Below are positions 6,001 through 9,000 of a stretch of 16,064 nt of DNA, piece after piece. Origin of the DNA: a virus; the UHGV virus genome UHGV-1966638. One strand, given 5' to 3'. Every line of letters starts with the position of its first letter. Positions within the stretch are counted from its first letter, which is position 1. Position numbers: made by a program.

Positions 6001-9000
6001 GTTTTGTTTACCGGAAAAAGTGCCGCGATTAACGGTTATTCCGTGGCAGGAACGGCGGAAAGCTGGCGCGACAGCGTGGCGCGGCTGGCTGGTGGCAATC
6101 CGTTCATGATGCTGGGTATAGCGACGTCATTATCCGCGCCATTAGTCGGGCTGACAGGCGCTGATGGTTTTGGCGTGCATTTTTTCGAGCAATCCACAGC
6201 AGGCAAGACCACAACGCAGAGCATCGCGTCGAGCTTGTGGGGCGATCCTGAGGCGCTGCGATTAACCTGGTACGGAACGGCGCTGGGGATAGCTAACGAA
6301 GCAGAAGCACACAATCACGGACTCCTTCCACTGGACGAGATAGGGCAGGCAGGAAGCCCCCGTGACGTGTACGTATCCTCATACACTTTGTTCAATGGAT
6401 TCGGAAAATTACAGGGGGCAAAGGACGGCGGCAACAGAGAGCTGAAAAACTGGCGGACCGTTGCTATCAGCACCGGAGAGGTGGATATCGAAACATACCT
6501 CAAAACGTCGGGGATAAAAGTTAAGGTCGGGCAACTTGTGCGCCTGCTCAATATCCCGATTCAAAAAGCCACGCAGTTACACGAATACAGCAACGGAAAG
6601 GATCACGCTGACGCATTGAAGGCGGCATGGCAAGAAAACCACGGCGCAGCGGGGCGTGAGTGGATTAAATGGCTTGCGGAGAACCAGCAGGAAGCTAAGG
6701 ACGCGGTTAGAGAGAGCCGTGCACGCTGGCGAAATATCATTCCAGACAATTACGGTGAGCAGGTCCACCGCGTGGGTGAACGTTTCTCCATACTGGAGGC
6801 CGCGCTTGTGCTTTCCGGTCATGTAACTGGCTGGTCCGTGCAGGAATGCCGCGATGCAATTCAGTATGTATTTAATGCCTGGGTAAAAGAATTTGGCACG
6901 GGCAACAAGGAACACAAACAGATCATTGAGCAGGCAGAGGCGTTTCTTGCTGCCTACGGCATGAGCCGTTTTGCGCCCGTTGATTATGACCCAGCCAGCC
7001 TGCCGATTTCTGAGCTGTACGGCTACAGGGATTCGGGAAGCCGTTACGATGAACCATTGTTGTTTTACGTATTATCGGAGCCGTTTAAATCGAAAGTAGC
7101 GGAAGGCTTCAACAAGGATACCGTTGCAAAAATACTCCACGAAGCTGGAATGCTGAAACGACCAGAGAGCGGGAGAGGATGGAAAATCAAGACCCCACGC
7201 CTTAAGAACCTTAATGGAGCGCAATTATGGGCCTACGGGATGTTGTTCGCTAATCACGATGAGGAGGGAAGCGATTAACTACGCGTATATAAGATGAAAA
7301 AATGTTGCCTCAGTTGCCTCAGTTGCCTCAAACAGTAATAAATATATATATGTGATTGATTTATATGTTTTATTTCTGTTTTTACTGAGGCAACAATTGC
7401 TCATTTTGAGGCAACAATTACCCATTTTGAGGCAACAACTGCCCATTTTGAGGCAACACGGCTGACAGGTTTTGTTTGTCTGAACGGAACCAACGTGATG
7501 TTGCCTCAAATACCCCCTATTGTTGCCTCAAATCGACATGATGTCGCCTCAATTTTTTTGTGATTATTAATCAAATCAATACGTTAAGACGTTTGAGGCA
7601 ACTGAGGCAACTGAGGCGACTGAGGCGACACGTTTTTCCTATATATATAAAGCGTGTGAATGATGTGATGCCTGGAAGGAGACGATTCATGATCAAAAAA
7701 ACAAGTGAAACGGAATCTGTTGTGAGGTTCGTATCGGTACGAGGCAGAGCCACGCTTTATATACCTGACGAACATCTGCATCACTGCGATGAAAAACATA
7801 TCCCGATCCTGATTGTCTGGAAGCGAACGGTATACGCCGATGTGACATGGCTGAATGATTCGCTGATGTTGATACACCGTGACCTGTTTGAACGTGAAGA
7901 GTTCCGGCGGGATATTGAAGAGCGGGCAGAAAAAATCTATGAGAAATATTCAGCAAACAGCAAAAGATCCGCACGGGCAATCGCTCACCATTTCATGACG
8001 CTGTATGACCTGAAAGCGGAAGATGCAGAAAAAGCGGCATGTGATTTATTCGATATGACAATGGGGATTATCCAGGAGTACCGGAACAAGGAGCGCAGAC
8101 CATGACAGCACAGATTGCAGCTTACGGGCGGCTGGTGGACGACCCGCAGGTAAAACAGACCAGCAAGGGAACAGCGATGACGCTGGCGCGTATGGCGGTA
8201 TCACTGCCATGCAGTCAGGCACAGGACGGACAGGCGACGTTATGGCTATCAGTCCTGGCATTTGGTAAGCAGGCCGACGCGCTGGCGAGACATGAAAAAG
8301 GCGACCTTATCAGCGTGGCGGGTAACATGCAGATCAGCCAGTGGACCGGACAGAACGGGGAAACACGGCAGGGCTGGCAGGTTATCGCTGACAGCGTAAT
8401 CAGTGCCCGTTCGGTGCGCCCTGGCGGGAAGCGGGGGCAACAGGGGAAGGCGACTGAAGCACTGGAAAGAGCAAAACGACAGACCGGACAGCAGGGAAAT
8501 CAGCCACCAGCGGGAGGTGATGACCCGTTCTCTGACGATATTCCGTTCTGAATGACAGCACAACATGAACCAGCAGACCGACCGTTCACCAACAGAGGTA
8601 ATTCAAGCAACCTTAAACACATCATAGGAGGTGAACACGTTGATTAAAGACTATATCCATAAAAATGACAACGGACGACCTTTACAAGAGCCTGCAATCC
8701 CGTTGCAATGCCCCTTTCATCTGGTAAGATGCAGGGGCGTTTTTGCATGACTCAACGATCACCGATAGGTAAAAAATGTCCACACTTAAACCCGCCATCT
8801 TCTCTTTCTTTTCCGGCTCAGGTTTTCTAGATCTTGGCTTCGAAAACTCAGGCTACGAGGTGGTTTTTGTGAATGAATTTCACCCACCATTTATGGATGC
8901 TTACAAGCACTCACGAGCGGTGATGAACAAACCTATCCCACGTTTTGGATATGCAGAAGAGAGCATCGAGGAAGTTGATCACAATAAGTTGAAAGATAAT

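Follow-up and report, generated by a model that had tools for sequence, protein, structure and literature searches.

Which function should be ascribed to a small reading frame lying between the replication origin and the ssb gene of a mobile element? The question is raised by the UHGV virus genome UHGV-1966638, a stretch of 16,064 nucleotides that was analysed as a whole (hereafter, the window). A preliminary description, made from the DNA alone, had noted a 138-aa product directly downstream of the origin, preceded by a good ribosome-binding site and overlapping an SSB-like gene, and had proposed the two as a pair with an uncharacterised function. We refer to the frame as ORF138.

The island, its origin and the ORF138-ssb unit

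The stretch carrying ORF138 and ssb is a PICI-like integrative phage-satellite island of E. coli. It contains an integrase, AlpA, a DUF927 primase-helicase and iterons, and near-identical islands are integrated at tRNA-Gly; in complete E. coli genomes the tRNA-Gly gene adjoins these near-identical islands beside the ETT2 type III secretion locus. Carriers of the island include strains S1-KEN-03-A and JNEC-KY203. The elements of the window that are relevant to the analysis are listed below.

1-1215, reading rightward: tyrosine integrase (integrase domains)
1858-2061, reading rightward: AlpA (PF05930 at 2.4e-20)
2127-2765, reading rightward: Rha-type antirepressor
2904-4418, reading rightward: Ash/Icd-like region
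between the Ash/Icd-like region and the DUF4222 gene: two small ORFs
4844-5143, reading rightward: DUF4222 protein
5140-7278, plus strand: DUF927 primase-helicase, 712 aa (PF06048 DUF927 at 3.8e-42; phrog_1139 'DNA primase' at 4e-141)
7304-7629, no strand assigned: iteron origin, 14 copies of TGAGGCAAC or a one-mismatch variant in both orientations, with an AT-rich core (motif count against shuffles)
7676-7681, plus strand: Shine-Dalgarno sequence AAGGAG of ORF138, 7 nt before the ATG (read from the sequence)
7689-8105, plus strand: ORF138, a predicted soluble alpha/beta protein of 138 aa from an unannotated family (translation, homologues, AlphaFold2, dN/dS)
8088-8093, plus strand: Shine-Dalgarno sequence AAGGAG of ssb, inside the 3' end of ORF138 and 8 nt upstream of the ATG (read from the sequence)
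8102-8105, plus strand: ATGA stop/start overlap of ORF138 and ssb (read from the sequence)
8102-8551, plus strand: island single-stranded DNA-binding protein, 149 aa, C-terminal DDIPF (PF00436, TIGR00621, phrog_44)
8708-8745, plus strand: intrinsic-terminator-like hairpin with a U-run, closing the two-gene unit (RNA fold of -23.5 kcal/mol, z = -2.47)

The backbone is the same as that of the PICI/P4-type satellites (int at tRNA-Gly, AlpA, Rha, Ash/Icd, primase-helicase and iteron origin), which are represented by EcCIMP1, an experimentally mobilised PICI-like island (PMC11773190), and by the 'Type C' PICI, as which SatelliteFinder has counted thousands of such elements (PMC10085698). The accessory region following the iteron origin, with PerC in sibling islands, is a further likeness to PICI-type satellites. 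The regulators of the island include Q in addition to AlpA, Rha and Ash/Icd. The C4/CI-type antisense RNA and the two iteron clusters are P4-like traits; unlike in P4, the sid/psu/delta capsid-size and transactivation module was not found when the window ORFs were scanned against Pfam, PHROGs and NCBIfam, and neither capsid nor terminase genes were present among them. A cargo hotspot borders the ORF138-ssb unit and is occupied by a type II restriction-modification system here and by ProQ-PerC in sibling islands; sequence homology to the ProQ-PerC-carrying islands stops at position 8579. The gene order ORF149-ssb-proQ-perC is present in an O157 island. One sibling island has been deposited as a Klebsiella 'plasmid', a circular copy of 22.9 kb, which hints at an episomal form.

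The iteron origin is placed between the stop of the primase-helicase gene (7278) and ORF138. With up to one mismatch allowed, the window contains 23 matches to TGAGGCAAC, where 3.98 +/- 1.89 would be expected, and a count of 23 was reached in 0 of 200 shuffles. A sigma-70 promoter scan of positions 7200-8900 returned none passing the criteria; visual inspection alone suggests a promoter candidate, TATAAA at 7646-7651, whose poor -35 element overlaps the last iteron. LexA boxes upstream of the ORF138-ssb unit were matched only at chance level.

ORF138 is more than a chance reading frame and constitutes a real gene. It starts with the ATG at 7689, ends with the TGA at 8103-8105 and comprises 138 codons, and the identical coding sequence is called by PGAP (NCBI) in a near-identical island. 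A longer frame starting with GTG (7560-8105) was rejected as the gene, the additional part being translated iterons. The preliminary description of the locus was right in every particular: the frame with its ribosome-binding site, the overlap with the downstream gene and the position next to the origin were all recovered as described, and the overlap recurs in islands of Buttiauxella, Klebsiella and other E. coli.

The gene that had been called SSB-like encodes a true SSB. Its product scored above both curated cut-offs (PF00436, 59.5 bits against 26; TIGR00621, 68.9 bits against 53.95), matched phrog_44 at 2.2e-41 and solved SSB structures down to 2.7e-11, and shares with the homotetrameric SSBs typified by E. 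coli SSB (PF00436/TIGR00621) the OB-fold domain, the linker and the DDIPF tip. The linker is short and rich in glycine, glutamine and charged residues, and the C-terminal sequence, ...GGDDPFSDDIPF, ends in the acidic tip. E. coli SSB ends in the same residues, and through them it binds replisome and repair proteins. The tips of the sibling-island SSBs read D[DGN]IPF, ETPF, EAPF or SIPL, with two exceptions, DEAGF (L007) and FDGDF (L024). Compared with E. coli SSB, the island protein is only distantly related (phmmer E of 6e-6 to 1eqq), and it is about 30% identical to phage SSBs; it belongs to a separate clade carried on enterobacterial satellites, which, among 5426 complete E. coli genomes, is present in 1783, with 2325 occurrences in total. 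Since ssb has its own AAGGAG, an independent start of its translation is possible besides re-initiation after ORF138.

The ORF138 family and its predicted fold

ORF138 belongs to an orphan family that no library describes and for which a confident structure model was obtained. Comparison with Pfam, PHROGs, NCBIfam and PADLOC gave no family match (in PADLOC, none at E <= 0.1), in line with the initial impression that the product contains no recognisable motif, and when 49 family members were compared with Pfam and PHROGs, only scattered single-member matches appeared, none of them consistent. Sequence searches of the PDB, run with the single sequence and with a profile, returned noise (SNX15 PX at E 0.23, an Ltp-like lipoprotein at E 0.032 and AcrIE10 at E 0.8), and no significant match was obtained in BFVD. 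Assignment to a well-characterised family with a mundane role had been named at the outset as part of what would refute the proposal; the remote-homology and structure searches led to no characterised family. By tblastn, ORF138 had no match in 50,697 phage records and a single one in 72,556 plasmid records, the circular sibling island.

A search of 5.8 billion protein clusters yielded 18 relatives, all of them enterobacterial, and Escherichia, Salmonella, Pantoea, Buttiauxella and Klebsiella all have homologues with 40-57% identity. When 1.84 billion representatives were searched exhaustively with a profile, 53 proteins were retrieved at E <= 1e-3, most of which are 115-130 aa long and share the core WF..C....IPYI.V..R.K.ADV.WDYIS. 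The locus search with the close ORF138 alignment gave one locus, in Buttiauxella. In the wide family no residues other than Cys33 and Pro39 are invariant, so that no catalytic residue set is evident. The family has a median net charge of 0 and a median pI of 6.7.

AlphaFold2, supplied with a 49-sequence alignment, modelled ORF138 with a mean pLDDT of 92.3 and a pTM of 0.85, and all five models reached 91-92. The predicted topology is beta-alpha-beta-beta-alpha-beta-beta-alpha, with a last helix of 27 residues, in a compact protein that would reside in the cytoplasm. Several assignments were considered and rejected. An AbrB/SpoVT swapped hairpin, suggested by the N-terminal segment 'RGRATLYIP', was dismissed because in the confident model this segment forms part of the main sheet and because neither AbrB nor MazE structures were among those returned. 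The name 'PX domain-containing protein', given by PGAP to a 90%-identical allele, found no Pfam or structural match behind it. A Prp/YsxB-type cysteine protease, brought to mind by Cys33, would need a His-Cys dyad, and the family has no conserved His. A DNA mimic or a basic DNA binder does not agree with the median pI and charge, and a known anti-phage defence protein was set aside on the grounds that no defence model of PADLOC-DB was matched.

Linkage of ORF138 to ssb in related islands

About a dozen independent contexts were inspected. The ATGA-type 4-bp overlap between the homologue and ssb was also present in Buttiauxella (L011), in Klebsiella (L014) and in two other E. coli islands (L028 and L029), the former of which has an extra ORF upstream of the homologue. 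Counted from the origin, the homologue came first or second, with its stop overlapping the ssb start, in the window, the E. coli siblings, Buttiauxella, one Klebsiella island and an O157:H7 island whose primase is different. A spacer of 118 nt separates the two genes in Pantoea, and two ORFs stand between them in the E. coli island L006. All intact enterobacterial islands examined had the homologue of the close clade no more than about 1.3 kb from ssb, in most cases overlapping it by stop and start codons; this proximity would also fit a real functional link.

The reverse relationship was much looser. ORF138 DNA was detected in 108 of the 5426 complete E. coli genomes against 1783 for the island SSB, which makes the latter about 16 times commoner. 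Elsewhere (L015-L017), the gene that precedes the island ssb and overlaps it by the identical 4 bp encodes an unrelated protein, 83-92 aa or 100 aa long; these loci are the O157:H7 and Nissle 1917 islands that encode a capsid, and an island of a third type. The family of 83-92 aa occupying this slot is large (160 clusters). A short 'F-x-T-L...AE' likeness had prompted its comparison with ORF138, and homology was rejected at an hhalign probability of 0.2-0.8%. In a further locus (L024) a 137-aa protein abuts ssb, and a small local BLASTP gave no match between it and ORF138.

The preliminary description had recommended an analysis of co-occurrence across islands, and this revealed no obligate linkage: neither SSB identity nor iteron nor primase follows ORF138. 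The OB domain of the window SSB is 88% identical to SSBs located behind the 83-92-aa family versus 62-72% to those near other ORF138 homologues, and for the SSB of the Klebsiella island L014 the identity to an SSB encoded behind the 100-aa protein amounts to 90%. Upstream of the various ORF138 homologues stand at least five primase architectures and five different iterons, the latter shared with loci in which another gene fills the slot. In two Klebsiella contexts the homologue is situated downstream of SSB-PerC, and another protein fills the position in front of ssb. Distant homologues (profile E of 1e-10 to 1e-4) were found in integrase-proximal or tail-distal accessory regions of prophages, placed between the integrase and the lysis or tail genes. 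One of them stands beside a VapBC-like (PIN-toxin) pair, and downstream of another come a DEDDh exonuclease and a helicase of the SNF2 type (SNF2-helicase/methylase-like protein). For the distant homologues examined, the surrounding DNA obtained, only a short piece in some cases, contained no SSB.

The ORF138-ssb 'pair' is thus a local arrangement and not a conserved system. The parts of the original proposal that stood are the lack of a recognisable family, the place directly behind an iteron origin and the overlap with a genuine SSB gene, which recurs in other islands; the notion of a conserved functional pair did not withstand the difference in genome counts (1783 versus 108) and the unrelated upstream proteins. 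Of the two outcomes named beforehand as speaking against the proposal, one was observed, in that the linkage to SSB is not obligate, and the other, a place in a characterised family, was not. Comparison of the related islands suggests that ORF138 is an accessory gene that can be exchanged for others, and not a partner dedicated to SSB.

Candidate roles of ORF138

A decaying or non-functional frame carried along beside ssb might be suspected from the fairly high dN/dS among the E. coli alleles (0.33-0.56) and from the fact that about 18 of the 108 E. coli genomes contain only part of ORF138, those listed keeping the 3' 144 nt. The intact frame with its strong ribosome-binding site, the identity of about 50% maintained across five genera, the 53 distant representatives and the consistency of the fold prediction make such a frame very hard to credit. 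The predicted fold itself raised the possibility of a nucleic-acid binder of the DHHA1/C-Ala type acting on ssDNA or structured RNA in the replicating satellite. Against the DHHA1 and C-Ala domains (RecJ, NrnA, the C-terminal domain of AlaRS) and TON_0450 (PDB 3ueb), ORF138 showed 5-15% identity with no sequence-level match. The scores were low, and BirA, ACT domains, KEOPS Pcc1 and designed proteins, all unrelated alpha/beta sandwiches, matched equally well, so that the likeness is one of fold and not of membership. Membership was rejected, as the Pfam DHHA1 profile match, the GGGH motif and a partner DHH domain are all absent; the net charge of about 0 also argues against nucleic-acid binding of this type, which we regard as quite improbable. 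A regulator of the satellite-helper cycle, either an anti-repressor or a protein that modulates transcription in the helper or host, comparable to P4 epsilon or the PerC, Rha and Q of the islands, is given similarly little credence. ORF138 is small, fast-evolving and protein-binding in character, and its island is rich in regulators (AlpA, Rha, Ash/Icd and Q, with PerC in sibling islands), but the protein displays no helix-turn-helix or other DNA-binding signature, has no tblastn similarity to any phage record, and its prophage homologues are located outside the regulatory regions.

More weight may be given to a replication or recombination accessory factor working with the island SSB, which would load or regulate SSB at the unwound origin or bridge SSB and the primase-helicase, with translational coupling setting the stoichiometry. 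The position of ORF138 as the first gene after the origin, the stop/start overlap with ssb in Escherichia, Buttiauxella and Klebsiella, the short distance to ssb in all intact enterobacterial islands with a close homologue and the one distant homologue that is operonic with an exonuclease and a helicase, i.e., with DNA metabolism, are all consistent with this role. It is nonetheless unlikely in view of the 16-fold excess of SSB and its association with unrelated upstream genes, the independence of ORF138 from SSB similarity, iteron and primase type, the Klebsiella homologue downstream of SSB-PerC and the prophage homologues with no SSB nearby. The explanation that we prefer, held tentatively and judged somewhat short of an even chance, is that ORF138 is swappable accessory cargo, a protein-binding effector in the variable slot heading the satellite ssb operon. 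The alternation of genes in this slot, together with the cargo hotspot next to the unit and the presence of the ORF138 family elsewhere in satellites and in prophage accessory regions, argues for exchangeable cargo. The neutral charge, the small size, the lack of a catalytic signature, the location in prophage accessory regions and an evolution faster than that of ssb speak for an effector that acts by binding a protein; compared in the same pairs of islands, dN was 0.054-0.123 for ORF138 vs 0.018-0.024 for SSB, i.e., two to five times higher.

According to the cargo explanation, ORF138 and ssb would form a two-gene operon that is read rightward out of the satellite iteron origin and ends at the intrinsic terminator. 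The conserved gene is ssb, whose product, with its host-like acidic tip, may coat the ssDNA exposed when the DUF927 primase-helicase opens the origin, and the DDIPF tip would recruit host replisome proteins. At least three, possibly four, unrelated families of small proteins alternate in the promoter-proximal slot between the origin and ssb. ORF138 would be co-expressed with ssb during satellite replication and yet lie outside the replication machinery; it may bind a protein of the helper phage, of a competing element or of the host, resulting in interference, exclusion or counter-defence.

A bolder version of the cargo explanation, which we consider improbable, treats the origin-ssb interval as an unrecognised hotspot of small effectors centred on SSB and ssDNA, comprising ORF138, the 83-92-aa family, the 100-aa protein and others. 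The slot proteins might then shield the satellite SSB and the replication intermediates from host immunity that senses foreign SSB, such sensing being reported for AbpAB (PMC10732053). Alternatively, they might divert the SSB-interacting proteins of the helper or the host. With ORF138, a new family devoted to counter-defence or interference would in that case have its first member, whose fold has no close solved relative.

The ssb neighbourhoods of plasmid leading regions contain psiB, ardA and other small early genes. The leading regions of conjugative plasmids (ssb with psiB and ardA; PMC8406263) may offer an analogous case of an element-borne ssb flanked by small variable early genes. The likeness is one of analogy only: there is no sequence relationship, and the satellite would enter the cell by phage injection rather than by conjugation. 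The literature searched for satellite or PICI ssb, for EcCIEDL933 ssb and for the ORF138 protein accession made no mention of the satellite ssb or of the gene in front of it.

As a well-delimited orphan family, that of ORF138 is a useful target, not yet a discovery. The satellite-type ssb is present in about one third of complete E. coli genomes, and the gene directly before it is variable and unannotated. Should ORF138 act as an accessory factor in replication, the little-known apparatus by which Gram-negative PICI-like elements replicate would gain a further component. If the slot proteins are effectors in the conflict between satellite, helper and host, this position would be a hotspot that is compact and simple to survey, much like the hotspots described for P2 and P4.

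Occupants of the pre-ssb slot

The gene position between the origin and ssb, held in the window by ORF138, was filled by a distinct, unannotated family of 72-92 aa in the capsid-encoding islands (O157:H7, Nissle 1917), as well as in other islands. This family comprised 160 clusters at 90% identity and was far commoner than ORF138; a Pfam scan of four of its members gave no match. Members were located in the following compared loci:

L006 (E. coli island), 8727-8984, member of the 72-92-aa slot family
L015 (island with the other slot gene), 4749-5000, member of the same family
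L016 (island with the other slot gene), 4722-5000, member of the same family
L025 (compared locus), 3540-3758, member of the same family

An allele of ORF138 with 90% identity, found in an E. coli locus (L028 3971-4390, NZ_CM143724.1), bears the PGAP name 'PX domain-containing protein'. As neither Pfam nor the fold searches supported this name, it probably arose as an artefact of annotation. A more distant homologue is encoded on a marine metagenome contig (L013 72-3025), where its gene overlaps by 8 bp that of a DEDDh-type exonuclease; the exonuclease gene is followed by one for an SNF2/DEAD helicase of 727 aa, the C-terminal part of which is methyltransferase-like. This was the sole context of a distant ORF138 homologue tied to DNA metabolism.

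Sibling islands in Klebsiella and Buttiauxella

The Klebsiella pneumoniae record NZ_CP033626.1 (L014, 22,859 bp), deposited as the non-mobilisable 'plasmid unnamed1', was found to be a sibling island in circular form. It encodes a primase and an integrase together with ORF126, SSB, PerC and a tape-measure-like protein. Its HTH-hypothetical-AntA genes are present in duplicate, and the record may represent an episomal or partly concatemeric form of the satellite. Tape-measure-like proteins of 930-990 aa were encoded downstream of SSB-PerC in two siblings:

L011 (Buttiauxella island), 8685-11666, tape-measure-like protein
L014 (Klebsiella island), 9747-12545, tape-measure-like protein

Such proteins are an odd cargo for satellites that lack other tail genes.

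Origin repeats, C4 RNA and the right end of the window

The motif count and the Rfam and Pfam searches identified the following elements:

4106-4193, + strand, C4 antisense RNA (RF01695, 77.7 bits versus a gathering score of 45)
13291-13402, second iteron cluster with five copies of the origin iteron
13890-15485, 531-aa tyrosine recombinase (PF00589, 2.4e-18, plus a weak GmtY-like match)
15486-16064, open reading frame abutting the recombinase gene, without a match in family searches

Close to the right end of the island, at a distance of 5.7 kb downstream from the main origin, the second iteron cluster repeats part of that origin at 96% identity, recalling the ori/crr pair of P4. The two clusters flank ORF138, ssb, the restriction-modification pair and Q. 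The C4 RNA falls within the 504-aa 'Ash/Icd-like' reading frame (2904-4418), just upstream of its Icd-like part, a placement that resembles RNA immunity of the P1/P7/P4 type; the reading frame may therefore be an over-call. At the right end, homology to the near-identical island L001 ends at 13755, and positions 13756-16064 may constitute a second mobile element inserted there.

Antiterminator and possible cargo downstream of ssb

Three further genes of the window were assigned using Pfam (Q) and PADLOC (the type II restriction-modification pair within 8580-10927):

8776-9915, m5C methyltransferase (MTase_II, 3e-164)
9851-10927, restriction enzyme (REase_II, 7e-124)
12596-12994, phage Q-type antiterminator (PF06530, 3e-48)

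The antiterminator is also kept in sibling islands, and the island that carries it has no structural or lysis genes; Q could act on the late transcription of the helper. Homology to the siblings encoding ProQ/FinO and PerC stops at 8579. Because the restriction-modification pair takes the place of those genes, the stretch downstream of ssb looks like a cargo or defence hotspot.
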